Shown: positions 12,941 to 33,266 of the stretch, piece after piece | Layout of the letters: each line of letters begins with the position of its first letter | Numbering within the stretch: the stretch's first letter is position 1 | NCBI GenBank assembly: GCA_963789265.1 | Contig: CAWBKB010000003.1 | Span: forward strand, 96,001 to 160,000 | Direction of reading: 5' to 3' | Length of the DNA: 64,000 nt | From: an uncultured delta proteobacterium | GTDB taxonomy: Bacteria > Desulfobacterota > Desulfomonilia > Desulfomonilales > Desulfomonilaceae | The notes under the pieces: generated by a model | What the model saw: only the letters and a program-made list of their open reading frames with translations | What the model was told of the DNA's origin: nothing | Database searches by the model: none | Program-made: the position numbers and the translations under genes

Positions 12941-15088
12941 TCACTGCTTCATCGCGCCCAGCAATTCAAGCATCTTATCTGAATTCGTAGTCGGCAATTC
13001 GCACTGATAATCGGCACAAACGTATGCGGTAGCTTTGCCCTCAAGGCTCACTTGTTCTGCTGTATATCCCGCGAGCCTTGTAATTGCCGGAGAATCGCCG
13101 TCAATAGGCCGCAGCAAAACAACCTTGGCGGGGATAAAGACGCTTCGTAGTTCCCTTAGCATGGCCTGTGTGTCATCGGCTTCGGCCCGACCCGCTATAA
13201 CTACCTCGTAAGACGGCCCAAGAGCGAACTCCAGAGCGACCAGCATCTGCGTGTAGGCTGATGGAAACTGTCTTATGTTCCCCGAGAATGTGCGGGCAAT
13301 AATTTCCGCCTTCTGGTCCAGATCAGGGCTCGCCGTCATACGGGCCAGACGCAACAGATTCAAGGCAGCCACTGAATTACCGGACGGGGTAGCGCCGTCA
13401 TAGATCTCCTTGTTGCGGATAAGCAACTCCTCGGAGTCGTCTGCCGTGAAATAGAAACCTCCCCCTTCGCTGTCCCAGAAGTGAGAGATAAAGTCATCAT
13501 TGAGTTTGACCGCGCTTTCAAGGTAACGCACGTCGAAGCCCGCCTCATACAATTCAAGCAGTCCCCAGATCAGGAACGAATAGTCGTCGGCATGGGCAGG
13601 CAGCGCCGCTTCAGCGTCTCGAAATCGATGCAATAGTCGGCCGTCAGGATCGCGCATGGTTTGGAGAATGAAGTCGGCTGCTTTACCGGCCGCGTCCGCA
13701 TACTCCAGCCTATCAAAGGCTTGAGCCCCTTTTGATAGAGCCGCGATCATAAGGCCGTTCCAGTCGGTCAGGATCTTGTCATCTTTACTCGGATGAATGC
13801 GCTTCTCTCTCGCAGCGAACAGTTTTGCGCGCGCCTTTTGCAGCACCTGTTCAAGTTGCTCTTGGCTGAGGTTAAGCTCGGATGCTACTTCCGAAAGAGA
13901 TTCTTTCAAGTGCAAAATGTTGGAGCCGGTCAGCCTGCCGGTGGCTTCTTCCTCGAAGTTGCCCGAGAGCCTTATATTGAAAGCGCGCTTGATCAAATCG
14001 GCTTCGTCTGCTTCCAGGACGTGATTGATTTCCTCGGCGTTCCAGACGTAAAACTTTCCCTCGACACCTTCACTGTCCGCGTCTTCCGCTGAATAGAAGC
14101 CTCCATTCGGAGCGGTCATGTCACGCAGTACATAAGTGAAGATTTCCTGGGCTGTTTGCGCGAACTGAGATTTTCCGGTTGCCTGATAAGCTTCGGTATA
14201 TGCCATAGCCAACATGGCTTGATCGTAGAGCATCTTTTCGAAATGGGGAACGAGCCACCGGGAATCGGTGGAATATCGGTGGTAACCGAAGCCCAAGTGG
14301 TCGTAGATTCCACCTGAACGCATGGCCTGAAGAGTCTTCTCGACCATCTCCAGGGCCTGCGTTTGTCCGGTCCGCTTCCAGTATCTGAGAAGAAACATGA
14401 GGTTGTGGGGGGTAGGGAATTTAGGGGCTTCGCCGAACCCGCCACGGACCGGGTCAAATCGTTGAGCCAATTGCCGGTAAGCCGAGTCAAGCACTTCTTT
14501 TCCCGGCAGATGGCCGGGGGATGTGTCCGGCAACTGGCGCAGCCCAAGCATAACTTTGCTTGCCGATTGCAGAAGTTCTTCCCGCTGCGTTCGCCATAGT
14601 TCCTTAATGCGCGGGGCCAGATCCGTCATGCCGAGCCTGCCGAAACGGCTCTCTTTGGGAAAGTATGTGCCCGCATAGAACGGCTTTTTATCCGGAGTCA
14701 AAATCACGTTCAGGGGCCACCCGCCACCGCCGGTCATCATCTGACATACGGCCATGTACACATGGTCGAGGTCCGGGCGCTCTTCCCTATCCACTTTGAT
14801 AGAAACGAAAGCCTCATTCATCAAGCGAGCTACATCGGGATCTTCGAACGACTCGTGCTCCATGACATGGCACCAGTGACAGGTTGAATACCCTATTGAA
14901 AGAAATATGGGCTTATCTTCTTTGCGGGCCTTTTCGAACGCTTCATCCCCCCAAGCGAACCAATCCACCGGATTGTGTGCGTGTTGGAGCAGATAGGGGC
15001 TTTTCTCGCGTATCAGCCGATTCGGCCTGCATTCACTTCTTGGAGAAGCATTAGTGTCCTGAGGGTCGGTGCCTTTTTCCATTCTCAT
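12941..15088 (-). CDS. yyaL: YyaL/DUF255 thioredoxin-domain protein
   Basis: [46 protein letters not shown]. Confidence 0.95.
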
Positions 15089-15122
15089 CGCTCCTGATTT
15101 GTGACAGGCAGTTTGCGATTCC

Positions 15123-15228
15123 CGTCACCCTGGACTCCGATCCGAGGAGTCGCCGGCGTCCCTGCCGGCGACGAATGACCGGCACGGAGGCCGGTCCTAC
15201 CAAGATTCCCGCATACGCGGGAATGACG
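15123..15228. repeat. Composite repeat: GTCA-type palindrome pair enclosing a GTAG-type REP
   Basis: CGTCACCCTGGACTCCGATCCGAGG ... GTCGCCGGCGTCCCTGCCGGCGAC ... ACCGGCACGGAGGCCGGTCCTAC (15178-15200) ... GATTCCCGCATACGCGGGAATGACG. Confidence 0.75.
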
Positions 15229-15429
15229 GAGAAATGCCCATCGCGACGCCTGTTCAGCATTATTAGGATTGGGCTGCCAAGAAGGCATTACTCTGGAAAA
15301 CGTTACAAATTTCTCACTCTTTCAATGGCTTCTTAGACACCGTTAAGTACACGTTGCGCCGGGATTTTCAAAAGGCAAGGACGGAAGGGGTTGAAATACC
15401 TTTTGAAGGCTCAAACAAACGGCCTGCAC

Positions 15430-16104
15430 TCACAGGGACTGAGAGATGCCGCCATCTCTGCGGATCCTCCAGAAATGCCAAAGCATTGTGATAACTAAGA
15501 AGCCGGGCAGAAGAATCACGTGCCATGCATACACGCGGACAAGCACGAGGTTACCGACCTCCTGAGGTCCGAACATGAGATTTGCCATGACTGATCCTGC
15601 TAGCGGCACTGTTTGAGTAAGGTTCCTCGCGATGGTCCATGCGCACAAGCCTCTATCGTCCCAAACGAGAAGGTATCCGGTGAAGTCGACCAAAAGTGTG
15701 GCGACCAGCAGCATTAGCCCGATGAGCCAATTCAAATGCCTTGGCGGAGCAAATGATCCGGTAAGAAAAACCCGCACCAGGTGCAAAACCACCGCGACAA
15801 TCATCATTTGGCCGCACCAATAGTGCAGGTTTCGTACGAAGAAGCCATAAGTCACTACGTACGTGATGGACTGCACGGAAGTGTAAGCCAGGCCGGAAGT
15901 GGGAATATAGTATAGTAGAAGCAGCGCTCCGGTGAATACCTCCAGCAGGAACAACCAGAATGCAAGCCCTCCCATACACCAGGTGAACCGAACTTTAGAC
16001 GAGCTTTCAGGTATGAATCGAGGATGAAGATGGACGAGAAATGCTGAAAAGGATCCTTTTGACATCAAGCCACCATCGCGGTGTCTTCGTTTTTCCAGTC
16101 GCAA
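15430..16104 (-). CDS. Cytochrome b6-like N-terminal subunit of a Rieske/cytochrome b complex
   Basis: WCMGG, RNLHYW..VLH, FTGYLLVWD, WHV..LWHF; four heme-b His ligands; ends RRDGGISQSL. Confidence 0.9.
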   Translation of the reverse strand: MRLEKRRHRDGGLMSKGSFSAFLVHLHPRFIPESSSKVRFTWCMGGLAFWLFLLEVFTGALLLLYYIPTSGLAYTSVQSITYVVTYGFFVRNLHYWCGQMMIVAVVLHLVRVFLTGSFAPPRHLNWLIGLMLLVATLLVDFTGYLLVWDDRGLCAWTIARNLTQTVPLAGSVMANLMFGPQEVGNLVLVRVYAWHVILLPGFLVITMLWHFWRIRRDGGISQSL

Positions 16105-16122
16105 GCATCCCTGCCAAGCATT

Positions 16123-16668
16123 TCAAGAGCCCCTCGATTTTGCCGGAGGCTTTTTCAGGAGGCGCAGTTTGTCATTATCACTCCCGGCCAAGAAGAGTTG
16201 TGGCATCGGCCGGGTTGCAGGGCCGCGCTTCACGTTCCCTTCCACATCAAACTCGCTCCCGTGGCATGGGCATTCGAAAAGTCCCAGAGCCGGATTCCAC
16301 CGCTGCCGGCACCCGAGATGCGTGCAACGGTCGTCGAACGCCATAACCTGCTTGTCTCCCGCGCGTTTGACGAGCCAGCAGCCGGCTTCGGGCACATGCA
16401 TCGGCACATTAGGCCGAAGCCTGTCGAGAACTTCTTTGGGAATTTCCCGCCGCCCGTTTTTCCCTATTTTGAAAAAGGCAAATCTCCCAATACCCCATGC
16501 CCCCAGTAGAGCTACCGATGCAGGGAGGAAAACCAAGAGGGATTGCAGGAAAAATCGCCTGGTCGTAGAAATCGGCTCATCCAAGGCGGTGCCTTTCGGC
16601 AGGATCGGAGAGTTGGCGGACCGGCTCCGCGCAAACCTGTATAGTTCCCGCACGGAACCGGCCGGCAA
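16123..16668 (-). CDS. Rieske 2Fe-2S protein with Tat-like anchor
   Basis: [30 protein letters not shown]. Confidence 0.92.
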
Positions 16669-16670
16669 GG

Positions 16671-16922
16671 TTAACAGCCTTCAGCAGGGGGCAGAGCAGG
16701 CTTCTTCGCGGACGCAGCCTTCATCGCGTTTTCAGCCTCCGCTTTGGTCTTGAACGGGCCCTTAACGATGGCCTTCACATCAGCCGGCTTTTTGTCCGTG
16801 ACAGAGACCTTCCCGGCAGCACCCTTGACCACGTAAAAATCTGCGGCAACAGCCACGGTGGACATGCCGAAAGCTATCAAAGCAAACAGAACCACACTCA
16901 ATCTCACGATCTTGCTCATCAT
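16671..16922 (-). CDS. Small exported protein with a C-terminal Cys
   Basis: AGGAGG RBS, signal peptide (AVA|AD), ends [13 protein letters not shown]. Confidence 0.8.
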
Positions 16923-16980
16923 GCGGCCTCCTAAAAAGTAATTAACAGCTAGTTCTTAGCATGAAAAAGGTTTCTTGCCC

Positions 16981-17589
16981 CTATTTTTTGTCGTACGGAG
17001 CCCATTTTTCAGCCAGACCGGCAAGCCAAAAGGAAGCCAGCGCCATCACTACGACGGCAGCGGCAATCAGCTCCTTGCTCATGCCGAATACTTGCCAGAG
17101 AGTGACCCTTCCGAGGGGGGAACTCTTGTAGAATGAGCCCCACACGGGAAATCCCGCGGCAAATACCCAGATGCCGACGATCATTCCGAGCATAAAGATG
17201 AGTGCATCAAGTTTACCCGACATGATCCCGACCGCTGAGGTGCCGGGGCAATATCCGCCAATCACGAAGCCGAGGCCGAACAAAACTCCGCCTACGAGCT
17301 GAGGCCACAAATACGTTTGCAGCAAAGAATAGTTCACGAGCATCGAGTAGTCGAACAGGCCTATCCAACTTAACACAATCAGCCCGACCAGTGCCGTGCC
17401 TATTGCCGAAAACATCACTTTAAGGACCCGCATATCTCTGAAATAGAAGATATTGGTTAGATTGCGGGCATCGCCGAAACCTGCCCTCTCAAGAACAAAG
17501 CCAAAGAGAATCCCCACGCCCAGTGCTACCCATAGACTGGTCCCGGGTCCGAAAGCTCCTGTAAGATAAAGTGGACCGCTCATGACCAT
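16981..17589 (-). CDS. YeeE/YedE-family sulfur (thiosulfate) transporter subunit
   Basis: FGFVLERAGF, DMRVLKVMF, GYCPGT. Confidence 0.9.
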   Translation of the reverse strand: MVMSGPLYLTGAFGPGTSLWVALGVGILFGFVLERAGFGDARNLTNIFYFRDMRVLKVMFSAIGTALVGLIVLSWIGLFDYSMLVNYSLLQTYLWPQLVGGVLFGLGFVIGGYCPGTSAVGIMSGKLDALIFMLGMIVGIWVFAAGFPVWGSFYKSSPLGRVTLWQVFGMSKELIAAAVVVMALASFWLAGLAEKWAPYDKK

Positions 17590-18134
17590 TCCCTCCTGAC
17601 AAAGTACGCGGCAACGAACGCCGTGGCGAAGACGGTCATCATGAACACCCAGCTACCCACCGCCATCGTTGCTCCTCCACTTAATGCTTGGCCGCTGGTA
17701 CACCCCAGAGCAAAACGAGTGCCGATCCCGCCGATCGCGCCTCCACCGAAAGCCATGCCCAATCTTAGGCCGACGCTTGCGGTGGGGCCTCTTCCTACTC
17801 CGGGCCTAAACCTCCGAGCGGTCACTACTGCGATCAAGCCTCCTATAAAGACGCCCGCCACCTCTAAGACCATCCAATTCACCAGAGGATTTTTGCCTCC
17901 AGGTTTGTAAAACGACTTGTAATAGGGATGATGTTCCACGGCTGTCGGGGCGGCTGCATGCGCTATCACCGCTGCGGTCCTGGTAACCGCGCCGGAGGCC
18001 CCAAGCCCTGTGCCCATCAGATAAAACGTAAACAGCAGAACCAATCCCAAGGCTATTCCGGCCACATAGGGGTTCCAGAATCCCTTGGCGTATTCCAAAT
18101 CCATCATTGTCGCTTCTCCCTTTCTGGTAATCAT
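17580..18134 (-). CDS. YeeE/YedE-family sulfur (thiosulfate) transporter subunit
   Basis: WNPYVAGIALG, GLGASG, ALGCTSGQALSG. Confidence 0.9.
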   Translation of the reverse strand: MITRKGEATMMDLEYAKGFWNPYVAGIALGLVLLFTFYLMGTGLGASGAVTRTAAVIAHAAAPTAVEHHPYYKSFYKPGGKNPLVNWMVLEVAGVFIGGLIAVVTARRFRPGVGRGPTASVGLRLGMAFGGGAIGGIGTRFALGCTSGQALSGGATMAVGSWVFMMTVFATAFVAAYFVRREWS

Positions 18135-18593
18135 TTCCTTTCCGTCGTTTGGGCGTCCGCCCCGGATGCCTCTGAAACGGGAGCGGACTCTTTGAATCGC
18201 ACCTTTGGTGCCAGCGTAACCGGAACCCCAAGGGTTTTCGCGGGAACTTTTTCAGCAACCATCTCCTGCCAGAACTTCGGCGATGGATCATTCACCGGTA
18301 AATCCCTCGGACATGACCTTAGCCATCTCAAGCCGAACTGGAAAACGCCGGCCACGAGAACAGCAATGACAGAGAGGATCACGGCTGTTATCAAGCCTGC
18401 TGCTATCATCCGGCCGCGCTTTTGACTAGGCGACCGAACAGCCTGGATCTGTTCTTTCTCTTCGCCGCTCTCAGCAACGATTTGCTGCTCTTCAGGCCCG
18501 TCTTGTCCAGGTGCTTGAACTTCCTCAGCCTCTAAGCGACTGTTTCTTGTCCTCTTCTGCCATTGCTTTATCCTTTTCGGCCAACATGGGCAT
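18131..18593 (-). CDS. Hypothetical single-pass membrane protein, probably with one frameshift near 18534
   Basis: MPMLAEKDKAMAEEDKKQS joins LEAEEVQAPG...RGRMIAAG (ORF 18131-18409) if one base is removed; acidic N-terminus then one TM helix. Confidence 0.55.
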
Positions 18594-18610
18594 TTGTCGC
18601 AGGTTTTGAA

Positions 18611-19504
18611 CTATGAGATTATCTGCGGAGGCGTAGCCGAAAAAATTATCAATGCTCTCAGGCTCATGCCACCGATCAAAACGCACAGGTCCGCGCCGAC
18701 AACCAGATATTTAGACATCTCGCCATATTCATAGTATTCAACAATGCTAAGCACAAAGGGGACAAGAAGTCCCACCGTCACAACCAGCGCCCAGAAGTAC
18801 GGACTTAAGAATCCAGAAAGCAAAATGTTGGCAGAAGCGGCTGCCTCAACAGAGCGTGTCAATGACATGAAGATAAACAGCATGAGCACACCCGCTTCAA
18901 CGGACAGGAATATGACATGGCCAAGGGCGAAATTCGACAAAGTCCGAATAGTGCTTATATCGATGATGGCCGCGCCGATCATAGCGACAGCCAGGCCCGT
19001 AGACATGGCCGAAGCCATGAAGAGCACCGGCATAACCGGAGTGTTCCAAAAGGGAATTCCGTTAACCACAGCAATGAGCACGCCGGTATATCCCGCGGTT
19101 CCGACCGCGAGGATACTCCCCACGACTTCAAGGTGACGTACGTATTTCTTCGCGAATCGGCCCACAAATGATATTTCGTTGAGCGCTGCGGCGTACAGAA
19201 AGGCCACCGGAATGAAGACCGACAGGATTATAACACCCCAGGAAATCATGCTGGTGAGATTGCTGACCAGGTATAATTGCCGCCAGGGCTGCCAAAATCC
19301 CGCTTCGAGGTCAAATACCAGACAAGCGGTCCCCAGCGCTACCAGAGGCCCGGAAGCTAATGAGCCCGCACGCGCCAATGACTTGGACCAGTCTGGAGCG
19401 AGAAGGTCGCAAGCCACGGCCGCTAGAAATGCGCCGGCGCCGGCGCCGGCCAGAAAAAGATACGAGACGATCAGCCATCCCCATGCGTTTTCAGGCATGG
19501 TCAA
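18611..19504 (-). CDS. psrC: NrfD/PsrC-family membrane anchor
   Basis: WGWLIVSYLFLAGAGAG, SMISWG, YTGVLI, IPFWNT; about 8 TM helices. Confidence 0.9.
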   Translation of the reverse strand: MTMPENAWGWLIVSYLFLAGAGAGAFLAAVACDLLAPDWSKSLARAGSLASGPLVALGTACLVFDLEAGFWQPWRQLYLVSNLTSMISWGVIILSVFIPVAFLYAAALNEISFVGRFAKKYVRHLEVVGSILAVGTAGYTGVLIAVVNGIPFWNTPVMPVLFMASAMSTGLAVAMIGAAIIDISTIRTLSNFALGHVIFLSVEAGVLMLFIFMSLTRSVEAAASANILLSGFLSPYFWALVVTVGLLVPFVLSIVEYYEYGEMSKYLVVGADLCVLIGGMSLRALIIFSATPPQIIS

Positions 19505-20043
19505 CTCCTTTTGTAGAAGACTTTGGGACGCGTGTTAAGGTCGGGCCGTAACGGCTCGGCCCTGTGCTTTGCTATGAATCGAGATATCTTGCTCCCGGGA
19601 TCGTTCAGGTCCCCGAAGATCCTCACCTGGTTAGGGCAAGTAGTTACACATGCCGGCTCGCCCCCCTGCCGAACGAGGTCGATGCAGAACCAGCATTTGA
19701 CGACAATGCCTTCACGTTCGTCCAGGGATCGCACCTTGTAAGGGCAGGCCTCTATGCAGTACTTGCAACCAACGCATCGGTTTCGATGAACCAGCACCAC
19801 GCCTTCCGGGGAAGTATAGATCGCACCTGTAGGGCAAACTCTCTGGCAAGGGGGATCTTCGCACTGATTGCACTGCAGAGGAATGAACTCTTTGCCGAAG
19901 GACGGGTTCGCTCCTCGCTCTTTTTCTTTGATCCAGTTGAATGATTGCCCATATTCCAGAGTCTGCTGGTTCTGGCAAGCGACCCGGCACGAATGACAGC
20001 CGATACATTTCGTTGTGTCTACAGCAATTCCGTATCGAGGCAT
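19501..20043 (-). CDS. psrB: PsrB/PhsB-type 4x[4Fe-4S] subunit
   Basis: CIGCHSCRVAC, CNQCEDPPCQRVCP, CVGCKYCIEACP, KCWFC..PACVTTCP. Confidence 0.92.
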   Translation of the reverse strand: MPRYGIAVDTTKCIGCHSCRVACQNQQTLEYGQSFNWIKEKERGANPSFGKEFIPLQCNQCEDPPCQRVCPTGAIYTSPEGVVLVHRNRCVGCKYCIEACPYKVRSLDEREGIVVKCWFCIDLVRQGGEPACVTTCPNQVRIFGDLNDPGSKISRFIAKHRAEPLRPDLNTRPKVFYKRS

Positions 20044-20095
20044 GTTTATCTCCCGTAAGATTCTGTGATGCAGCCACCTCAGGAGCCCTACCGTC

Positions 20096-22312
20096 TTATG
20101 TCTTTTTCACTCTGACAATGATTTCGTTCGACATGCTGTGCCCGAGAACCGGCTCAAAGTACGTCGGCAGGAAGTCATTGTAAGAAATGCCGTATCCGAA
20201 CCCGGTGTGCAGATTTCTGGAGAAAACTCCGTAGCCGCTGGGAAGAAAGACGCACTCCGGATGAATACCTTCCGTCACTCTTGCCCTGGCCCTGCCCTTG
20301 CCTACTGACGAAGTTATCGTCATGCAGTCACCGTCTTTTATGCCCAGCGCTTTGGCTCTTTCCTTGTGAATCCACATTCTTCCCCAATCATTGAGCAGTG
20401 TGATCTCTTTTAGGTACGATTGGTTGATGGACTGTGCATGCGTTAGATGCGCCTGCTTGCCGTGAATGAGCCGGAAGGAGTGCGGATCGTTTATGTCCGG
20501 CGTCACAAGCGGCTCTTCCCACGTCGGGACTGCCGGAAGATTCAGGTCACGCAGTGTGGATGAAACGAATTCCAGTTTTCCGCTGGGTGTTTTGAATTTA
20601 GGATCGCCCGGCTTCCATTTCCCGCCCAGATCTATTACGCCCTCTTTCTTCAACTGCTTCAACGTTACGCCTGAAGGAGCCAGCGCCGCATTGTTCCAAT
20701 CCTCCAGAGTGAATTTGAAGTACTGTCCTATACCCAGATCTGGAGCCATTCCCCTAAGAATGTCCATGAGAGGCTTGGTATCGTACAAGGGTTTAATAAC
20801 AGCCTGCCTTATAGCCACCTGCTTAGTGTCGTAGCAATGATTCTTGTAGACTACGTCATCGCGTTCCAAATAAAGGGATTCAGGGAGTATGTAGTGAGAA
20901 ACGGAAGCCGTCTCGGACAGCACGTAATCGAAACTGACCAGGAGGTCCAACTTCCTGTACCCCTCGATAACTCTTGCAGGATTCGGATTCGTGCGCAAGG
21001 GATTGGTATGATAGACAAAACCAACTCTCAGCTTACCCTCAATAGCCAGCTCCGGTATGGCATGACACACGCCATGACCCGGAGGAGTTAGCGGATAACG
21101 CTCCGGATCCGCGCTTCCGTCTACCATTGAGCTTTCAATCTTCGGCGGCATGAGGAACTTCACAGGATCCAGCTTCCCTAACTTGACCTTTGGAGATTCA
21201 AACAGGCCACCGGATTGATTGTAATTACCCATGAGTCCGTTAAGGCAAGCCACAGCCCTGACGAGTTGCAAACTGTTCTTGTACTGAGTGCCCGTAGCGC
21301 CGTGATAACCGACATGGATGATGGACCTGGGCGCGGCCGCGCTCATCTCGCGTGCAAGCTCCACGATATCTCCCTGCGGCACCGAGGTTTTTTCTTCGGC
21401 CCACAAGGGAGTATACGGTTCCATCTGCGCGGCAAATTCATCGAACCCCTCGGTAAACTTTTCTACGAATGCTTGCTGATAGAGGTTCTCTTTGATCATC
21501 ACACGACCCAAGGCGAGCATCAATGCGAGGTCCGTACCCGGTCGAATTCGTATCCACCGATCCGCCATTGCTGCTGATTCACTGTAACGGGGGTCCACAG
21601 CCACAATGCGGGCTCCGTGATCGCGGCCTGAGGTTATCTCCCTGAGCTGTCTCAAATCCAAGCCCGCAGCAGGATTGCGCCCCAACAACATGATGACCCG
21701 TGCGTTCGCGAAGTCATGCTCAGGTTTGGCCGATCCAACGGTAAGCCACCATCCTATGTTTCTCGGCAGAAAACAGGTGGTAGCGTGCGAAAAGACGTTA
21801 GGCGAACCCAGCGCTCTCATAAAAAGATGCCCCAGAGCGGCATTCCCTTGCGGATGTTGAAGCCAAAAGAGGGACTCGGGACCATGTTGTCCGGAGATTT
21901 GCTTTACCCTTGTCCCGATTTCCTTGTAAGCTTGTTCCCAGGAGATCTTTTCAAACTTGTTGGGTCCTACCCGCTTGAGTGGCGACTTGATGCGATCCTT
22001 GTTGTAGACCTCGTGCAACATGCCGTGCCCTTTGGCGCACATGCGACCCTTGTTGCCACCCGCGATGGGGTTGCCTTCCGCCTTCCATATTCGGCCGCCA
22101 CGCGTGTAAACCTTGATCGCACACCAGTTGCCGCATCCGTCACAAAGAGTGGGAGTGATCTTAATTTCAGAGGCAATCTCCCGCTTCGATGCCCGTGCGC
22201 CGAAGCTCAGGTAGGAACCTGCAGCGAGAGAAGCTCCGCCGACAGCGGATCCAATAAGGAATTTTCTCCGGGTCATGCCTCGTTTTTCCATGTTCCCTCC
22301 GTTGGGACGCAA
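20096..22312 (-). CDS. psrA: Molybdopterin oxidoreductase catalytic subunit, polysulfide/thiosulfate reductase (PsrA/PhsA) type
   Basis: Tat signal TRRKFL; CDGCGNWC..C FS0 cluster; SHATTC Mo-ligand Cys region like PhsA/PsrA HxSTC; C-terminal molydop-binding domain. Confidence 0.85.
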   Translation of the reverse strand: MRPNGGNMEKRGMTRRKFLIGSAVGGASLAAGSYLSFGARASKREIASEIKITPTLCDGCGNWCAIKVYTRGGRIWKAEGNPIAGGNKGRMCAKGHGMLHEVYNKDRIKSPLKRVGPNKFEKISWEQAYKEIGTRVKQISGQHGPESLFWLQHPQGNAALGHLFMRALGSPNVFSHATTCFLPRNIGWWLTVGSAKPEHDFANARVIMLLGRNPAAGLDLRQLREITSGRDHGARIVAVDPRYSESAAMADRWIRIRPGTDLALMLALGRVMIKENLYQQAFVEKFTEGFDEFAAQMEPYTPLWAEEKTSVPQGDIVELAREMSAAAPRSIIHVGYHGATGTQYKNSLQLVRAVACLNGLMGNYNQSGGLFESPKVKLGKLDPVKFLMPPKIESSMVDGSADPERYPLTPPGHGVCHAIPELAIEGKLRVGFVYHTNPLRTNPNPARVIEGYRKLDLLVSFDYVLSETASVSHYILPESLYLERDDVVYKNHCYDTKQVAIRQAVIKPLYDTKPLMDILRGMAPDLGIGQYFKFTLEDWNNAALAPSGVTLKQLKKEGVIDLGGKWKPGDPKFKTPSGKLEFVSSTLRDLNLPAVPTWEEPLVTPDINDPHSFRLIHGKQAHLTHAQSINQSYLKEITLLNDWGRMWIHKERAKALGIKDGDCMTITSSVGKGRARARVTEGIHPECVFLPSGYGVFSRNLHTGFGYGISYNDFLPTYFEPVLGHSMSNEIIVRVKKT

Positions 22313-22324
22313 TCTTTAAATATG

Positions 22325-22353
22325 AGGATATTTGAATATCAATATTATGTCAA
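22325..22353 (-). promoter_or_regulatory. Sigma-70 promoter of the psr operon with an overlapping palindrome
   Basis: Minus strand TTGACA-17 nt-TATCCT; GATATT-TG-AATATC palindrome at 22327-22340. Confidence 0.65.
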
Positions 22354-22695
22354 GGAATTTCTCTGCCGGGAAACAAAAAAACTTCGGCCAAGAACCGAAC
22401 AACAGCGCCGCTCATCTCACAAAAAGCAGATCAGAGCCGATTGATGTATGATCGGGACCATCAAGCTAGAGGAGGCTGACCATCGTGGTTAAATTGCTTT
22501 AATGTGCTGTACTATACAGCCAGAGCCAACGTAGCGACGATGTTACACTTTTTGTGTGCCCTTTAGACCAATTCGCCTCAAGCAAGTGACGCCGGGCCCC
22601 GAGTAGAGAGGGGTTCATAGTCTTCGGCAAAAATAATGTCTCTCTGGCTGTACGATGCGGAAAATTCTAACGGTGCACCGTGATGGGCGTTTCAC

Positions 22696-22781
22696 CGTCA
22701 TTTCCGCGCACACGGTCCCGCGCGACGCGGGACAGACTGGTCCCTGGATCGGAGTCCGGGGTGACCCCGCGGAACGCGGGG
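22696..22781. repeat. GTCA-type palindromic repeat; uninterrupted relative of the MITE target at 7317-7546
   Basis: Reverse complement reads CCCGCGTTCCGCGGGGTCACCCCGGACTCCGATCCAGGG, versus CCCGCGTTCCGCGGGATCACCCCGGACTTCGATCC at 7318-7352. Confidence 0.75.
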
Positions 22782-22973
22782 CAAATTGGGCAAGACTTTG
22801 GCAACTGCTGTAAAATCCGCCCCTGCGCCAACTCTTCGAAATTATGTGCCACGGATGACCAAAAGGACGTGATTTTGGGTAATTAAAATAAAAGCACAAT
22901 GGGGAGATCCCGAATTTCCGAGAGAACTCTGCCTTCGAGCGCGTCAATTCCTTCGTCTCAAATCCGCATAGCA

Positions 22974-23981
22974 TTATTGCTGTCTGAAATGATCCCAACC
23001 GCGTGCGCTCAAATCTTCCCGGCTGCCATCAATTCGTACCAATTCGATTCCGCGGCCGGGAACAAATTCTCCTATGGGGAACAACCTCCTCCCCTGCCCT
23101 TCAAAATCCTTCTCAAGTTTCCCTAACAATTCCGGCTTGATCGCAGCGAGGAGAACGTAATCTTCCCCGCCGTTCACCACCCAACCCAGGGGGTCTGCTC
23201 CCATGATCGCCGCGGCACGAGCCATTGCTTCCCCGATAGGAAGCTGAGCCTCATGCACAACCGCGCCCACTCCCGAATCGCGGCAGATATGGCCCAGATC
23301 GGAGGAGATTCCATCAGAGACGTCGATAGCTGCCGTGCAAGCGCGGGATCTTGCCAGCAACCGGCCTTCCCTGATATGTGCGCGAGGCTTGAGATGGGAC
23401 GCCAGCAGAGGCCGCGCTATTTCCGGATCAACGTCCGGCGAACGCAAAAGAATCTCCAGGCCTGCTGCCGATCCCCCTGTGGGTCCGGTGAGCACTATGA
23501 TGTCACCCGCACGGGCAGTGTGGCGGAATAGAACTTCGTCGCGAGGGACTACGCCGGTCACTGCGACATTTATCACGAAGTCGCCTTTGGAGCCGGTGGT
23601 GTCTCCACCGAGAAGATTGACGTCAACGGTTCGGGCAAGCTCCGCCATTCCCCGGTACAGACCATCGAGCCATTCCAGGTCAATTCTTTCGGGAACGGCG
23701 AGGCTGACAAAAGCGTCTCGCGGTATGCCTCCGCATGCAGCGATATCCGAGAGATTTGCCGTGAGGGCTTTTGCACCGATCACCTCCGGAGGCGCCCAAT
23801 GCATTAAAAAGTGTACTCTTTCTATCAGGAGATCGGTAGTTATCAGCAGGTGCTCAGGTCCCCCGATTGAGATGACCGCGCAGTCATCCCCGATCCCCTT
23901 TACCACCCCCTCGGTCCGGAAAATACCCAGGGGAGCAATTCGGTCGATGAAGCCGAATTCTCCTATCTCTTTTAATTTCAG
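22974..23981 (-). CDS. thiL: Thiamine-monophosphate kinase (probable CTG start at 23981)
   Basis: KLKEIGEFGFIDRI, GIGDDCAV, NLSDIAACGG, GGDTT, IDVSDG, GGEDY. Confidence 0.95.
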   Translation of the reverse strand: MKLKEIGEFGFIDRIAPLGIFRTEGVVKGIGDDCAVISIGGPEHLLITTDLLIERVHFLMHWAPPEVIGAKALTANLSDIAACGGIPRDAFVSLAVPERIDLEWLDGLYRGMAELARTVDVNLLGGDTTGSKGDFVINVAVTGVVPRDEVLFRHTARAGDIIVLTGPTGGSAAGLEILLRSPDVDPEIARPLLASHLKPRAHIREGRLLARSRACTAAIDVSDGISSDLGHICRDSGVGAVVHEAQLPIGEAMARAAAIMGADPLGWVVNGGEDYVLLAAIKPELLGKLEKDFEGQGRRLFPIGEFVPGRGIELVRIDGSREDLSARGWDHFRQQ

Positions 23982-24067
23982 GAGAGGACTCCTTTTATGC
24001 GCACTCTTTCCTAACTCCGGTCATGTATTTTGATGTGGACGATGTTCAAAGCCCTAACCTGCTTCCG

Positions 24068-24127
24068 GTAGGACCGGCCTCCGTGCCGGCCGTGGGTGTC
24101 AGTGACCGGCACGGAGGCCGGTCCTAC
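24068..24127. repeat. Inverted REP pair (REPIN)
   Basis: GTAGGACCGGCCTCCGTGCCGG ... CCGGCACGGAGGCCGGTCCTAC: perfect 22-bp inverted repeat. Confidence 0.9.
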
Positions 24128-24226
24128 TTTGCAAGTGGCATCGCATTTATGAAACGCTTTAATAATCAGACAAAACTTGCAATAACGACATCCGAGTTAG
24201 CAGATCTCTTTTCAACCGTGATCGGG

Positions 24227-25231
24227 TCAAGGCTTTTCCGGGCTTGAAAATCCCCGAGCCTCAGCGACCGCTCCCGTTGCAGGCCGTCGCGAACGTCTCC
24301 GCGAGGGCTTACGCCGCCACTTTCTATGAAGCCAGAAGCCCTGTTCGGGACTGATGCGTATCCACTGCTCGAACAGGTCGTGAAACTGCTGGCTGACGGT
24401 CGTGAGATCGAGTCGCTGATCCCCGCTGAGTTGGATGCGGACCTCTTCACCGAATATACTCTGATATCGGCCATCGTTCCGGCGGTATGTGCACAGAGGC
24501 AGGATGCGAGCCTCCCCATCAATGGCAAGCCTGGCGAACACCTCATTGGCAGGCGCCTGAGTCCCGAAGAAATCGACAAATATCCCTCTCTCCGGATCGC
24601 CCCTTTGGTCGGCCAAGAAAGCTACCATTTCTCCATCACGGAGAAACTGGATCATATTTTTCACAATGCCCTTGTGAGGAAACGTTTTGATGGCAGTTTC
24701 TTCTCCGCCTCGACTGAAAAGGTAGCGGGAGAGAAATGGATTCTTGAGTGGAGTCATGATGAGGTTCAATCGGATTCCAAGGAATTTTATAGTGGCCGCG
24801 CTGACCTCGAAGCAGCCGAAGTGCGAGTTTAAAAGACAGATGCCGTCCTTTCCGGGCATCATGGCCAAATTATGCGGAAGCCTTCCCTCGATAACTATGC
24901 GTTCTGCCATCTCCTTTTGGGTCCATCGCCTTATCCGGAGGAACTCCACTGCCAGCAGACCCACGTGCTCGAAACTCTTGCGAGCCGTCTCCACAATCCA
25001 TTTGCGAGAGTGCTCGCGGCCGAACGCAATGGAAAGGTTTTCAATGGCGGCTTCGCGGCGGTCGGAGAAAAGGACGTATACCAATCTCCCGACGAATCGA
25101 CCGAATGCCAAAGCGGCGGATTCTGGAAGATGGTTGAGAACTTCTTCCAGGAGACGTACCAGAAGAAAGGTGGCGTAATCAATAAAGAAACTAAATTTCA
25201 GTTGTTGTTTCGCATTGCGTTGGATGTTCAT
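24227..25231 (-). CDS. Lipid A late acyltransferase (LpxL/HtrB family)
   Basis: SHFGCFE (HxGxWE-like), FLADQ, VDFFG, PEQGFWLHRKWR. Confidence 0.88.
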   Translation of the reverse strand: MNIQRNAKQQLKFSFFIDYATFLLVRLLEEVLNHLPESAALAFGRFVGRLVYVLFSDRREAAIENLSIAFGREHSRKWIVETARKSFEHVGLLAVEFLRIRRWTQKEMAERIVIEGRLPHNLAMMPGKDGICLLNSHFGCFEVSAATIKFLGIRLNLIMTPLKNPFLSRYLFSRGGEETAIKTFPHKGIVKNMIQFLRDGEMVAFLADQRGDPERGIFVDFFGTQAPANEVFARLAIDGEARILPLCTYRRNDGRYQSIFGEEVRIQLSGDQRLDLTTVSQQFHDLFEQWIRISPEQGFWLHRKWRRKPSRRRSRRPATGAVAEARGFSSPEKP

Positions 25232-26889
25232 TCGGAAACCGTTTCATTTGGTGACGATACGCGCACGGTCGTGACTTCGACAAGCTTCACCTTGCCTTTT
25301 AAGCCTTTCAATGCCCGGGATCCCACTTTTTGCAGCGAAAACAGGTCCAGGTCCCGAATCTGATCGTAAGTCTCCGGACCTATGAGGACCTGGTCCGGGT
25401 CAGCCGCCTGGCAAATCTTTGAGGCAAGATTCACGGCGTGTCCCAGGACTGTGTAATCCATGCGCTCGTCAGACCCGAAGTTCCCGACGATGGCATTGCC
25501 AGTGTTAATACCATAACGGACCTGAAAACGCAGCTCCGGGTCCAATTTCTTTACTTTCTGAACCAGCCTCTCGCGTATACGCAACGCCGAACGGACAGCC
25601 CTGGCAGGCGCATCTTCTTGTGGAAAGGGTGCGCCGAATATTGCCATTGCAGCATCTCCGATAAACTTATCCAGGGTCCCTTGCTCGTGGAACACCACCT
25701 CGTTGACCACCATACAGAAAAGATTGAGGATCTGCTGGAGCTGTCGTGGACTACAGGTTTCACAAAGGGTGGTAAATCCGACTATGTCGCAAAAGAAGAT
25801 AGTAGCGACTGTTTCTCTCACTTGGAGGTCGGCTTCGCCTTCGAGGATGAGGTCGACCACCTGGGATGAATGGAAGCGACTCAGATTCTGGCGTATAACC
25901 GCACGTTTTATCGCTTCCTCGTTGAGTTGTTCGGTGAGCTTCCAGCGCTGTATCGCCAGTGCCGCCTGATGCCCGATGGCGGTCAGCAAATCCAGGTCTT
26001 CAGGCTGATAACCAGCGGTAATATCAAGGCAGTCGACATAGAGGACCCCTAGAATCGTCCGGTCTTCCCAGATTGGAGCTGCAATTACCGACCGAATCCC
26101 GTCAATTACTACACTGTCTCCCATCTCGAATCGTGGATCTTCCAGCGCATTGTCGGTGAGAATGGCCACTCGATCATCCAAAATGCGGTTTATAATCGTG
26201 TTGCTTACCGGTCTAATATTCCCTTCTTCCGCCGCGGATCGTTCCTTCCTGGGCACCGGCACCCCTTCCTCTTCTCTTAGCAGTATCGTGGCCTGAGAAG
26301 GTGAGAAGATATCGAAGATCTGATCCATTACATAATCTAGGATTTCATCAAGGTCTTTGGTAGCCACGAGTTCTTCGGTGATTCGGTAAAGAGTAAGGAG
26401 GTTGCGGTTCAGATGTTCCCTCCTGACCCTGGTGGGAACCCGTCTGATGCTCTCCGTAGCCTCGGAGAGATAGCTTCTGATCATGCCGAGCGGCTTGAGT
26501 ATTCTTTCTGTCTCCTGTTTGTGGACGAAAGGTTCATTGCCGAGGCGGGTCATGTCCAAGATCTGAGTTTGGGCTAGCCCCGGAGAAATCTCGGGCGTCC
26601 CGATTGGACGAAATAGGAGCCTGAACGGACCTATTTGAATAACATCTCCTCCTTTTATATGCCGCCTGTTCTTGATTTTGCGGCCGTTAACCCAGGTCCC
26701 GTTCCTGCTCTCAAGATCCTTTACAATGAACCTTTTCCCCTCGCTGAGGATCATGCAATGGTTTCTGGAAACCATGCTGTCAACCAGGCGCAGATCACAT
26801 CTCTCGTGACGGCCCACGAGTGTCTGATGACCCGTAAAGCCCTCTTCGACCTCTTTGCCGTCGGGACGGATGATCACAAGATTGAACAT
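25228..26889 (-). CDS. FHA-GAF-class III adenylate cyclase
   Basis: FHA: GRHERCD, VSRNH, SRNGTWVNG. GAF: SVIAAPI, DLDLLTAIG. Cyclase: FCDIVGFT, DKFIGDA, MDYTVLG, VNLASK. Confidence 0.9.
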   Translation of the reverse strand: MFNLVIIRPDGKEVEEGFTGHQTLVGRHERCDLRLVDSMVSRNHCMILSEGKRFIVKDLESRNGTWVNGRKIKNRRHIKGGDVIQIGPFRLLFRPIGTPEISPGLAQTQILDMTRLGNEPFVHKQETERILKPLGMIRSYLSEATESIRRVPTRVRREHLNRNLLTLYRITEELVATKDLDEILDYVMDQIFDIFSPSQATILLREEEGVPVPRKERSAAEEGNIRPVSNTIINRILDDRVAILTDNALEDPRFEMGDSVVIDGIRSVIAAPIWEDRTILGVLYVDCLDITAGYQPEDLDLLTAIGHQAALAIQRWKLTEQLNEEAIKRAVIRQNLSRFHSSQVVDLILEGEADLQVRETVATIFFCDIVGFTTLCETCSPRQLQQILNLFCMVVNEVVFHEQGTLDKFIGDAAMAIFGAPFPQEDAPARAVRSALRIRERLVQKVKKLDPELRFQVRYGINTGNAIVGNFGSDERMDYTVLGHAVNLASKICQAADPDQVLIGPETYDQIRDLDLFSLQKVGSRALKGLKGKVKLVEVTTVRVSSPNETVSE

Positions 26890-26914
26890 TATAATCTGCC
26901 GAAATGAAGCAAAA

Positions 26915-27280
26915 TCAACCAAAGGCAACGGCTTCTATAAGCTTGAGCAAGTTCTGCTTAGATTCATCACTTATTCTCGCGATTTCAAAACCCGAAACAT
27001 AATAGCCTTGCGGATTTTCTCTTCTGGTCCACCGACAGACGGCTTCGAAGATCAGAGGCGCTCCTTTAACATAATCCGATGCCTGGATGATAAGAGTCTT
27101 GGTTGCGTCTACATCTACCTTGACGCCGAATAGCTGAATCCCTGTTTCGTTGATATCTTGTACAAGCCCTATGAACCTCTTCGTCTCTGCGTCGTAAGCG
27201 GGGATCTTGAAGAGCACGTACTTTCTCTTGGACTTTCGACGATCTTCTACCACCGACCCCGTCGGATTCTCGTCGCTCAT
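26915..27280 (-). CDS. Stand-alone PilZ domain protein
   Basis: DRRKSKR (RxxxR) and DINETG (DxSxxG-like); GGAGAG RBS before ATG at 27280. Confidence 0.85.
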   Translation of the reverse strand: MSDENPTGSVVEDRRKSKRKYVLFKIPAYDAETKRFIGLVQDINETGIQLFGVKVDVDATKTLIIQASDYVKGAPLIFEAVCRWTRRENPQGYYVSGFEIARISDESKQNLLKLIEAVAFG

Positions 27281-27424
27281 ATTTCTCTCCCCAGGGCTAT
27301 GCACTCCAACCGAGAGCCGGCCATGATTGCTTCCAGGTACTGCTTTTCCGACTTAGACCGTGACGTAGCACAACACTTGGCTTCACTAGCTTTACCGCAC
27401 ATTGACGGCCTGCGCTCTTGAACG

Positions 27425-28690
27425 CTAGCCGCGTTTTGCTGTTCCCTGTTTCCCTGCAAGTTTGCGAGCATTTTCTTTCAGGGTATTCTGAAGTATCCGG
27501 TTAACTGAACGGCTGACAAGAAACCTGAACGATCGGATCAGGTTTTCAGGATCTCCCGATTTGCCCAGCCGTTTCGCAAGAGACCGGCCGGCCTTAGCTA
27601 TTGTAGTAGCATGGCGTTCAACAAGCCGTGAGAAAGCATCCGCGTCTTTTACTTCAAGCTCGCTTAGGATAGGAGGTCTACGATCAGCCAGCCCTTCGGC
27701 CTTCCTGACCGCGGACTTATATTTCTCATACCGGGTGACGATCTGGTGAAAAGCAACCAAAGGATCATCCTCAGAAGAGGACAACTTCCTATCCAGATAG
27801 TCGGTAACCTCCATCAAAAAGCGGACAGACTGGGGGTGTGCCCGAGACATACGCTTCACGATGTATTCCAGGACTACTTTCATCGCTAGTGCTGCGAAAT
27901 CGACCGTCACATTGTCCTGGTAATGAGCGCGCACCCTTTGAAGCTCATGAGCCAACGCGCTCACCGATCGCTTTGAGATTTCCCATTCCAAAGTAAGAAT
28001 GGTCTCCTGTAGTTTCCGCAGGGGAAATTTGTCGGCAACCTGAAGCGAAGGTCTTCGGGCACTTGTAATCCTCTCAGAAGCATTCACCGGTGCTTGTTCG
28101 ACCGTTTGATCGGCTTGGACCGTTTCCCTGAAGAGCGTGTGCATGTGGCGTGAGATCTCTTTGGCCACAACATCATCATAAGCAATCCCGAACCGAGGGG
28201 AAGCCGCCGTGGAGGTATCCGGAACAGTCGGGCTTCTCCGGGTCGCCGAATCTGTGCGAGCATCAGCAATGTCCCTGACTTCTCGATAATCTGTGAACTG
28301 TTCTTCTTCAGTTCTCGATTCAGCCACTCTTACATCCAACTGAGCGGTTTCAGGGGGAGGAGTTTCAGGTTGCTCCACAAAAAGCGTATCCACCGCCAAG
28401 TCTATCGCCCAGTCAGTTTCTTGGTCCCCCGAGGTGGCAGGAGGGGCCGCCCCTTTGTATGCCGTCATGAAAAGCGTATCGACAGCTTCTTCAAAGGAGG
28501 GGAGATCGGTCGTCGGCTTCGAGGGATTTTGCACCGAGGACGAATGAGCCCGACCGCGACTTTCGGGGCTGGTTGCGAGATTCTCCTCTGCCGGGGTGGG
28601 CGCCTCTACAAAAAACGTATCAACGGCCCTTTCTATGAGCTGGTCCAGATCATTCGATTCGTCTTGCTTGGACATGAACTTGTAAGCCAC
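27425..28690 (-). CDS. Hypothetical protein: disordered acidic N-half with repeated AVDTLF motifs, helical C-half
   Basis: AGGAG RBS plus GTG 5 nt after the mglA stop; 421-aa ORF. Confidence 0.75.
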   Translation of the reverse strand: MAYKFMSKQDESNDLDQLIERAVDTFFVEAPTPAEENLATSPESRGRAHSSSVQNPSKPTTDLPSFEEAVDTLFMTAYKGAAPPATSGDQETDWAIDLAVDTLFVEQPETPPPETAQLDVRVAESRTEEEQFTDYREVRDIADARTDSATRRSPTVPDTSTAASPRFGIAYDDVVAKEISRHMHTLFRETVQADQTVEQAPVNASERITSARRPSLQVADKFPLRKLQETILTLEWEISKRSVSALAHELQRVRAHYQDNVTVDFAALAMKVVLEYIVKRMSRAHPQSVRFLMEVTDYLDRKLSSSEDDPLVAFHQIVTRYEKYKSAVRKAEGLADRRPPILSELEVKDADAFSRLVERHATTIAKAGRSLAKRLGKSGDPENLIRSFRFLVSRSVNRILQNTLKENARKLAGKQGTAKRG

Positions 28691-28695
28691 GGCTC

Positions 28696-29310
28696 CTAAG
28701 CTCTGAGTTTATAATGGACTGATTTAATCGTGATTTTGCTAACTTCTCGCAACGTCTCAAAAACACCTGTGCCTTGCAGAGCGCTGGCCATAATAACGGG
28801 CGCGGAGTGCTTGAGCATCGAGGTCAAGTCCTGCTCCATGGTTTCTTTGGACAAAACCGGAATGACGCTCCCTTCAAGATCCCTTTTGTTAAACTGAAGA
28901 ACAAGAGGCAGCTCATCCAGGTCCAAATTGTCCCCGGCCAGGTTCTCACGCAGATTCTGAAGGCTCTCTCTGTTGGATGCCTGTTGCACCTCCATTGAAT
29001 CCGCAACAAAAACGACTCCGTCTACGCCCTTCAGAACCATTCTCCTGCTTTCGTTATAGAGGACTTGCCCGGGGACCGTATAAAGCTGCACTCTTATGCT
29101 GAAATCTCTAATTTTCCCCAAGGTTAGTGGAAGGAAGTCGAAGAAAAGCGTTTTGTCACCCCTGGTGTCTATCGAAATCATCTTGCCCATGAACTGGGCG
29201 CTCATCTTTTGATTCACGTAAAGCAAGTTTGTGGTCTTCCCGCACCTCCCCGGCCCGTAGTAGACGATTTTGACCTGGATTTCCTTCGCGCTCTTATTGA
29301 TAAACGCCAT
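28696..29310 (-). CDS. mglA: MglA Ras-like small GTPase
   Basis: KIVYYGPGRCGKTTNL, TLFFDFLP, LYTVPGQV, LKGVDGVVFVADS, NKRDL. Confidence 0.95.
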   Translation of the reverse strand: MAFINKSAKEIQVKIVYYGPGRCGKTTNLLYVNQKMSAQFMGKMISIDTRGDKTLFFDFLPLTLGKIRDFSIRVQLYTVPGQVLYNESRRMVLKGVDGVVFVADSMEVQQASNRESLQNLRENLAGDNLDLDELPLVLQFNKRDLEGSVIPVLSKETMEQDLTSMLKHSAPVIMASALQGTGVFETLREVSKITIKSVHYKLRA

Positions 29311-29311
29311 G

Positions 29312-33216: not shown

Positions 33217-33266
33217 CAGGTTTCTTGACCTCAACTATATGCCGGATAGGGCATGTATTGTCGCGG

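Follow-up and report, generated by a model that had tools for sequence, protein, structure and literature searches.

A Conserved Psr/Phs-Type Operon with YeeE and Rieske/Cytochrome b Genes in the Desulfomonilaceae: A Candidate Two-Module Link between Sulfur Compounds and Menaquinone

Psr/Phs enzymes are self-sufficient quinol:sulfur oxidoreductases. Besides PsrABC of Thermus thermophilus, their classical members include Wolinella Psr, with Sud, and Salmonella PhsABC, and the Sud-Psr pair is the precedent for periplasmic delivery of sulfur to Psr. Some other molybdoenzymes come with a Rieske/cytochrome b pair of their own. Examples include the haloarchaeal Nar operon with NarB/NarC (PMC2483277) and the Nap cluster of Caldithrix abyssi (PMC5317091). 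A role in selenite and tellurite reduction has been reported for the ext cluster of Geobacter (PMC5877670); for the cytochrome b complexes of the APWY clade, described as uncharacterised, reverse operation has been proposed (Kao and Hunte 2014, PMC4122944); and models of cable bacteria assign Psr/Phs, along with a partial complex III, to sulfide oxidation (PMC13047784). Here we describe nine genes in a stretch of 64,000 nucleotides (hereafter the window) from an uncultured delta proteobacterium of the Desulfomonilaceae (assembly GCA_963789265.1, contig CAWBKB010000003.1, positions 96,001 to 160,000). The genes run psrA-psrB-psrC, followed by a one-helix Cys protein, a YeeE transporter split over two genes, an exported protein of 83 amino acids, a Rieske protein and a b6-type cytochrome b.

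The original prediction, made from the DNA letters alone, had called nine co-oriented genes at this place and did not recognize their combination as one described before. The open reading frame (ORF) listing and the translations agree: all nine are present at the positions it gave, on the minus strand between window positions 22353 and 15423. A full-text search, with subscription papers outside its reach, found no description of a Psr/Phs-type enzyme together with YeeE and Rieske/cytochrome b. On balance we think it probable that the nine genes are one conserved respiratory gene set, in which PsrC and the b6-type module work in series through menaquinone. Since PsrC and the b6-type complex are both presumably quinone-reactive, and every version annotated keeps the quinone subunit, two modules in series are the simplest design.

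Are these genes found together in other genomes? Using a cytochrome b alignment, we fetched 80 loci from species-representative genomes and scored them by tblastn with the nine window proteins. In 48 close loci, which the depositors mostly labelled as Desulfomonile, Desulfomonilaceae or Syntrophaceae metagenome-assembled genomes (MAGs), cytochrome b is at least 53% identical to that of the window. Among the 32 of these with at least 7.3 kb of upstream sequence, 30 carry psrABC, both yeeE halves and the Rieske gene upstream of cytochrome b in the order seen in the window, and all eight upstream genes are detected in 26. Cytochrome b is solitary in close loci L031 and L047. Some genera (L029:10622-11837 and similar) have an ArsR-type regulator and a 251-amino-acid gene of the sulfite-oxidase fold (MsrP-like, 86 bits) between cytochrome b and a DUF255 gene.

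We also surveyed 70 genomes of the order, all from one family (Desulfomonilaceae by depositors' label). Cytochrome b is present in 63 of them (35 of the 36 high-quality genomes) and a PsrA orthologue in 66; the orthologues are 67-95% identical, the paralogues 35% or less. By the two coordinate tables, PsrA and cytochrome b share a contig and stand no more than about 8 kb apart in 48 of these 63 genomes. The two lie on different contigs in 15 genomes, five of which we examined. The separation in G057 is a contig break; in G066, G032 and G063 cytochrome b is genuinely elsewhere (loci L031, L022 and L047, respectively); and in G034 (locus L008) psrABC stands apart from a yeeE-Rieske-cytochrome b block. 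Among the remaining ten, several have cytochrome b within about 1 kb of a contig end. In four genomes (G037, G039, G042 and G044; completeness 99, 86, 82 and 81%) the orthologues of PsrA, YeeE2, Rieske and cytochrome b are all missing together.

The other 32 loci are distant ones (cytochrome b 40-46% identical) and come from Desulfosporosinus isolates and MAGs, a Deferrimicrobium MAG, and Anaerolineales and Chloroflexia MAGs. Of the 22 with enough flanking sequence, 18 have psrA and psrB upstream of cytochrome b, and four (L064, L070, L072 and L076) are without psr. The link of Rieske/cytochrome b to psr and yeeE, on which the original prediction had staked its reading, is thus found in close loci, distant loci and the census alike. 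The gene order of the distant loci is yeeE1-yeeE2-psrA-psrB-psrC-Rieske-cytochrome b, and this rearranged cassette recurs in Desulfosporosinus, Deferrimicrobium and Chloroflexota; recurrence across phyla in differing gene orders is hard to credit to inheritance alone. The YeeE/Rieske-linked PsrA proteins of other phyla are 53-89% identical across Bacillota, Deferrimicrobium and Chloroflexota, which suggests, from sequence identity, that the cassette moved between phyla. PsrC of the window is 73-97% identical to the family-level alignment rows and 27-34% identical to three rows from other phyla. Every version annotated keeps a quinone subunit, either NrfD or, in L069, a b561-type cytochrome.

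The operons of other phyla extend further at the 3′ end. After cytochrome b they encode a three-helix protein of 121 amino acids, with Ala-Pro-Trp-Ile-Phe at the place of PEWY, and then a multihaem cytochrome related to ExtM. By tblastn, 20 of the 32 distant loci have a subunit-IV-like gene downstream of cytochrome b and 25 have an ExtM-like gene there; none of the 48 close loci has either in this place. Desulfosporosinus has a second operon (L141, G070:C65:123000-141000), which starts with a lipoprotein rhodanese ending in Gly-Gly-Cys and continues with a PsrA of PhsA grade, a TorD-like chaperone, PsrB, PsrC, Rieske, cytochrome b, a 137-amino-acid APWV protein and an ExtM-like cytochrome.

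For family assignment, the nine translated ORFs were compared with Pfam and NCBIfam profiles. The original prediction supposed a Psr/Phs-type catalytic subunit, and PsrA indeed sides with Psr/Phs and not with Arr, Ser or Ttr. Its best NCBIfam model is PhsA (452.6 bits, under the equivalog cut-off of 694); ArrA scores 171 bits, the type II DMSO reductases (Ser-like) 147 and TtrA 54. In the Protein Data Bank (PDB), Thermus PsrA (2vpw) comes first, end to end (333 bits, E-value 4e-98), and ArrA second (180 bits). The operon has the Psr/Phs architecture: a twin-arginine translocation (Tat) signal, an N-terminal FS0 4Fe-4S domain, molybdenum-bis(pyranopterin guanine dinucleotide) (Mo-bisPGD) domains, a four-cluster subunit and an NrfD subunit. 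The Cys at the Mo-ligand position is conserved in PsrA and aligns with Cys173 of Thermus PsrA, which we take to be the ligand to Mo; clades A to D of the PsrA tree (25 rows) have Cys here without exception.

This tree (IQ-TREE quick, LG+G4, SH-aLRT support) has 43 rows, homologues from this order and from five genomes of other phyla, with no named reference enzymes among them. The window-type, Rieske-linked PsrA proteins of the Desulfomonilaceae form one clade (support 100), the YeeE/Rieske-linked PsrA proteins of other phyla form another (support 100), and both are nested in one clade of 26 rows (support 99). The other-phylum clade is sister (support 98) to seven paralogues. Two of these belong to the second Desulfosporosinus operon, which has Rieske and cytochrome b downstream and a PsrA that exceeds the PhsA cut-off (793 bits); the other five are Desulfomonilaceae psrAB genes beside TauE, without psrC, Rieske or cytochrome b. 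The Rieske/cytochrome b linkage therefore occurs in three of four PsrA subclades, for which a single origin is at most a possibility. A motif near the active site reads GYHGA-x-GTQ in the window clade; the related clades have Trp-Arg at this place, and their Arg aligns with R332 of Thermus PsrA.

The cytochrome b of the operon scores 237.8 bits with the NCBIfam model NF040969 (ExtP), under its cut-off of 290. Its haem ligands H81, H95, H182 and H197 are invariant in 24 alignment rows, with spacings of 14 and 15 residues, the pattern of b6, and C30 is present in all 21 rows that cover the position. The best NCBIfam models for the Rieske protein are of the b6f-type PetC, below cut-off, and its true start may fall later within the ORF. 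No ORF for a membrane protein lies between the end of cytochrome b and the next gene at 15088; without a subunit IV gene after cytochrome b, the module is incomplete in cis. The operon has no gene for cytochrome c1 or cytochrome f, and a PF00032 search of the window's genome gave no match.

The original prediction had called the Rieske/cytochrome b6 module incomplete. This stands for the operon but probably not for the genome, in which a candidate partner pair lies at a second locus. A subunit-IV-like protein of 129 amino acids is encoded on another contig (G000:C1:1629943-1630332). It is 35% identical to the cis-encoded 121-amino-acid protein of Deferrimicrobium (E-value 3e-16) and scores 24.7 bits with ExtQ (cut-off 150); the motif APWIF is invariant in nine of nine aligned sequences of this type. 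Overlapping the 3′ end of its gene is that for a 710-amino-acid protein with 11 CxxCH motifs (ExtM, 395.9 bits; cut-off 800). The two genes are adjacent in all six further genomes of the order that were checked, and the 11-haem, ExtM-like cytochrome was found in 69 of the 70. The genome's only other cytochrome b is a fusion of 531 amino acids with an ExtQ-like domain of its own (L090, G000:C1:361001-369000); a Rieske gene precedes it, and small c-type cytochromes and a Sec-dependent clade II nosZ follow. The orphan 129-amino-acid protein is therefore without another obvious partner, and we infer that it assembles with the cytochrome b of the window. A complex prediction for cytochrome b, the subunit-IV-like protein and a PsrC partner gave an ipSAE of 0.00 in two runs and carries no weight either way.

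Two further observations concern the second locus. Just upstream of the pair, this genome (L088, G000:C1:1626001-1633000) and four of the six others (L093-L096) encode a protein of 297 amino acids with NCBIfam matches of EgtB/SenA type. In G039, G042 and G044 the ExtM-like gene has an in-frame TGA or is in pieces, for which decay, selenocysteine or assembly error is conceivable.

The remaining genes make up what appears to be a sulfur-handling kit. The 83-amino-acid protein is conserved in the family, and all 22 sequences end in the same two residues, G82 and C83, making it a candidate sulfur carrier. The AlphaFold2 (AF2) model, a weak one (pLDDT 61.5), has a small core of three strands and one helix with a disordered tail rich in Lys and Pro; a search of the ESM Atlas with this protein returned unnamed clusters only. 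All 29 aligned sequences of the one-helix protein carry a Cys immediately behind the helix (CPxDLPVNDPxPxLW), on the predicted periplasmic side. One idea is that the protein mimics helix E and the ef loop of subunit IV. We also considered it as a remnant of the trihaem protein of 304-316 amino acids that precedes yeeE in other phyla, and dropped this because the predicted topology is opposite.

YeeE half 2 keeps the Cys of its channel motif in 38 of 39 close loci. In all 19 other-phylum loci (including L049, L071 and L069) and in close locus L008, the codon at this position is TGA (G-x-U-P-G-T), which probably codes for selenocysteine. The exchange of cysteine and selenocysteine at a single site favors a chemically active residue over a passive pore. 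The YeeE halves score 25-35 bits with the TsuA models (cut-offs 400 and 645) and also match YedE selenium-transporter models weakly. Among the nine operon proteins, Pfam and NCBIfam gave no match to a TusA/YeeD-like protein.

How might such a set work? In the arrangement that we propose, PsrC and the b6-type complex would be two separate quinone-reactive modules sharing the menaquinone pool, not one rigid super-complex. PsrABC would exchange electrons between menaquinone and periplasmic sulfur of the sulfane or thiosulfate type held on the Cys-tailed carrier; by analogy with Sud-Psr, we infer that this carrier delivers sulfur to PsrABC. The b6-type complex would link menaquinone to the 11-haem cytochrome, and YeeE would carry sulfur species across the membrane, from the periplasm to the cytoplasmic Dsr pathway or back. 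The window's genome encodes dsrAB (dsrA is split in the assembly).

For the direction of electron flow, our tentative choice is the reductive one, in which the cytochrome c and the b6-type complex feed menaquinol and Psr reduces a sulfur compound. It is slightly favored because the characterized relatives of PsrA are reductases and because complexes of APWY type have been proposed to run in reverse (PMC4122944). On the strength of this published proposal, the reverse electron flow imagined in the original prediction stays a lead. The oxidative direction ranks next and is more doubtful still; it draws on the cable-bacteria models, in which Psr/Phs and partial complex III take part in sulfide oxidation (PMC13047784). 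It is tempting to go further and picture the cassette as a self-contained chain for reduced sulfur, running from carrier-bound sulfane sulfur and a YeeE relay through Psr as a quinone reductase, the APWI-type b6 complex and the 11-haem cytochrome to periplasmic or extracellular acceptors. We hold this bolder picture to be unlikely. If it were true, soil and peat "sulfate reducers" (Desulfomonilaceae, Desulfosporosinus) would gain an anaerobic route for the re-oxidation of sulfide and sulfur and a role in the cryptic sulfur cycle, and YeeE would be a covalent sulfur-relay enzyme rather than a passive channel.

Several observations weigh against one gene set with two modules in series. In four genomes (G066, G032, G063 and G034) psr is split from cytochrome b or from the yeeE-to-cytochrome b block, so co-transcription is not obligatory, and that of Rieske/cytochrome b with psr in the window is a presumption. 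The Rieske-linked PsrA clades are not exclusive sisters; the Rieske-free psrAB-TauE subclade lies among them. The ExtM-like cytochrome persists, with in-frame stops or fragmented, in three of the four operon-free genomes and may serve other partners. The PsrA of the window is the one most divergent from PhsA, and it has GYHGA in place of Trp-Arg; the substrate may therefore be other than polysulfide or thiosulfate. Finally, related genomes do not count as independent observations.

The strongest of the alternatives, which we also consider unlikely, is respiration of a chalcogen compound of higher potential, such as tetrathionate, selenite or tellurite. Menaquinol would be oxidized by the b6-type complex in a forward Q-cycle, electrons would pass to the multihaem cytochrome and from there to PsrAB, PsrC would be mainly an anchor or a second point of entry, and the cysteine or selenocysteine of YeeE would handle the product. 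The nearest models for cytochrome b and the partner pair, ExtP, ExtQ and ExtM (238, 25 and 396 bits), are named for the selenite/tellurite operon of Geobacter, but every one of these matches falls under its curated cut-off. The weak YedE matches of the YeeE halves, the TGA codon that all 19 other-phylum loci have in place of the channel Cys and the PsrA motif unlike that of related clades also speak for this reading. A nearly universal operon in a family that carries dsrAB is, however, a better fit to core sulfur metabolism than to a trace element, and the quinone subunit, kept in every version examined, would be redundant. Moreover, the neighboring AIRS-family gene is ThiL: SelD was rejected for it, since it scores 296 bits with the ThiL model (cut-off 184).

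A single physical super-complex, coupling oxidative and reductive branches of sulfur metabolism (disproportionation) by reverse flow through Rieske/cytochrome b at the expense of the proton motive force, seems to us improbable. The conserved linkage would suit it, as would the APWI motif of the subunit-IV-like protein, given that the APWY clade has been proposed to run in reverse (PMC4122944), and the MsrP-like gene after cytochrome b in some relatives. Yet the parts are unlinked in genomes that keep all of them, of the six subunits predicted for the b6-type unit, two have their genes at another locus, and an oxidative sulfur enzyme is absent from the operon. We give the least credence to a purely historical adjacency, with Rieske/cytochrome b as a general menaquinol:cytochrome c module and a chance neighbor of the Psr-YeeE operon: cytochrome b apart from the operon in G066, G032 and G063, its partners encoded elsewhere, an ExtM-like cytochrome in 69 of 70 genomes (three of the operon-free four among them) and cytochrome b without psr in four of 22 distant loci all point that way, but three PsrA subclades and at least four phylum-level lineages share the association, in differing gene orders, PsrA, YeeE2, Rieske and cytochrome b are jointly absent in four of four genomes, and nosZ has its own fused cytochrome b complex in this genome.

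The features of the operon are listed in Table 1. Neighboring genes overlap or are separated by 4 to 58 nucleotides, with the sole exception of 201 nucleotides from psrC to the one-helix gene. The ORFs of relatives begin about 50 codons earlier in the one-helix gene and so cover this gap. As called, the window gene has 92 codons (18409-18131), and the upstream remainder of the gene (18563 to about 18410) stands in another frame, owing to a one-base insertion after about codon 7 relative to L003 (window position about 18545). Because a class II aminoacyl-tRNA synthetase (window 53501-55013) and dsrA (G000:C6:339556-340795) are also split in this assembly, the frameshift is probably an indel error of the assembly.

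The original prediction had placed all nine genes behind one promoter. A plausible site does precede psrA (22353-22325), followed by GGAGG and the ATG at 22291; this ATG is the likely start of psrA, whose ORF opens at TTG 22312. The promoter scan found four sites where shuffled sequences gave 5.3, and without such enrichment the site is a candidate only.

Table 1. Features of the operon in window coordinates
Feature	Position	Strand	Evidence
Sigma-70-like promoter candidate	22325..22353	-	TTGACA, 17 nt, TATCCT; 10/12 positions match
psrA, Tat-exported Mo-bisPGD catalytic subunit, Psr/Phs family	20096..22291	-	PF04879, PF00384, PF01568; RRKFL motif
psrB, four-cluster iron-sulfur subunit	19501..20043	-	Fer4_11 and related Pfam; 16 Cys in four groups
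psrC, NrfD-type membrane quinone subunit	18611..19504	-	PF03916, 151.8 bits
One-helix protein gene	18131..18563	-	No family; alignment with 28 relatives
yeeE half 1, C-terminal half of Sulf_transp profile (172-309)	17580..18134	-	PF04143, 69.5 bits
yeeE half 2, N-terminal half of profile (2-158), GGYCPGT motif	16981..17589	-	PF04143, 64.6 bits
83-amino-acid exported protein, signal peptide, Gly-Cys C-terminus	16671..16922	-	No Pfam/NCBIfam family
Rieske protein, TRRFFL Tat-type anchor, CTHLGC and CPCHGS boxes	16123..16668	-	PF00355
Cytochrome b, b6-type, 211 amino acids	15430..16065 (ORF from 16104)	-	PF00033, 134 bits
Weak terminator-like hairpin, operon end	15423..15436	-	No membrane-protein ORF before the next gene at 15088

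The operon is flanked by ThiL upstream and by a DUF255 thioredoxin-domain protein and then transketolase downstream. The remaining genes of the window are housekeeping ones (lipid A synthesis, BamA, pilus genes), which places the operon in the core chromosome. An Rfam scan of 14500-24500 gave sub-threshold chance matches only, with no molybdenum cofactor (Moco) or other riboswitch. GC-rich palindromic elements, similar to repetitive extragenic palindromes (REP-like), lie in the intergenic regions on both sides (window 22700-22830 and 15130-15200). About 6 kb downstream of the operon, on the same strand, a multihaem cytochrome c of 272 amino acids (c7/NrfB-like) adjoins a b561-like membrane protein (window 8089-9598). 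A signalling cluster at window 25228-33234 encodes an FHA-GAF adenylate/guanylate cyclase, a PilZ protein, a small Ras/Arf-like GTPase with a Roadblock/LC7 protein, and a DUF4388 protein of 708 amino acids.

What appears new here is the family-wide, core-genome version, in which the bc-type module is divided between two loci and the Gly-Cys carrier is minimal. The findings suggest that Psr/Phs is coupled, throughout a lineage and across phyla, with a Rieske/cytochrome b complex of its own, with a multihaem cytochrome and with a cysteine/selenocysteine relay, an undescribed wiring of sulfur compounds into the menaquinone pool. Among the organisms that carry it are sulfate reducers characteristic of soils, peat and sediments. 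For the uncharacterized cytochrome b complexes that have Ala-Pro-Trp in the Qo motif, the operon supplies a concrete genetic setting. A bc-type module that looks truncated may, as here, draw its missing parts from a second locus, which is relevant to the annotation of "partial complex III" in other Desulfobacterota. Because named Desulfosporosinus isolates carry the cis version, these questions are within the reach of experiment.

How does the locus compare with described systems? With Thermus thermophilus PsrABC (PDB 2vpw-2vpz) it shares the Tat-exported Mo-bisPGD subunit, the four-cluster and NrfD membrane subunits and the Mo-ligand Cys, and its Cys-bearing periplasmic helper is reminiscent of Wolinella Sud. 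It goes beyond the classical Psr/Phs systems with its split YeeE, its two small Cys proteins and its Rieske/cytochrome b pair, all foreign to them, and differs further in a PsrA that falls under the PhsA cut-off (452.6 against 694 bits) and has GYHGA instead of the Trp-Arg of related clades.

The Rieske/cytochrome b6 pair is of the ExtO/ExtP type, and the closest likeness to the electron-transfer part is ExtMNOPQS of Geobacter sulfurreducens (within extHIJKLMNOPQS), described with a small Rieske protein, a cytochrome b of about 23 kDa, a small membrane protein and multihaem cytochromes c (PMC5877670). The window cytochrome b and its trans-encoded pair find their best NCBIfam models in ExtP, ExtQ and ExtM, although the scores stay below the cut-offs (238 against 290, 25 against 150 and 396 against 800). 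There is also a shared sulfur-transferase theme, as Geobacter ExtH is rhodanese-like (PMC5877670). In contrast, we saw neither a porin nor ExtKL, ExtN or ExtS here, the genes for the membrane protein and the cytochrome lie at a second locus, and the Geobacter cluster is described without Psr or YeeE (PMC5877670). We dropped "Cbc5" as a name for the Ext module, since it denotes cbcEDCBA (PMC11434368).

Haloarchaeal Nar and Caldithrix Nap likewise combine a periplasm-facing molybdoenzyme with Rieske and cytochrome b, without cytochrome c1, and a quinol link has been proposed for them (PMC2483277, PMC5317091). They are, however, nitrate reductases, with no NrfD subunit beside Rieske/cytochrome b in the available descriptions, whereas the window system retains a complete PsrC, a catalytic subunit of the Psr/Phs sulfur-type lineage and the YeeE kit. 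The YeeE halves share with YeeE/TsuA of Spirochaeta thermophila, which occurs with YeeD, the PF04143 fold family and the Cys in a G-x-C-P-G motif (summarized in PMC13047784). Here, in contrast, there are two genes with TsuA/YedE scores far below cut-offs, beside genes for a one-helix Cys protein and for an exported protein with a Gly-Cys tail, and no TusA/YeeD-like match among the operon proteins. Finally, a split, b6-like cytochrome b and an Ala-Pro-Trp Qo motif recall both the APWY clade, known from menaquinone-using anaerobes of delta-proteobacterial and Chloroflexi type (PMC4122944), and the PetAB "partial complex III" of cable bacteria (PMC13047784). The motif here is APWI (APWV in one relative), and the likeness to the APWY clade is one of motif.

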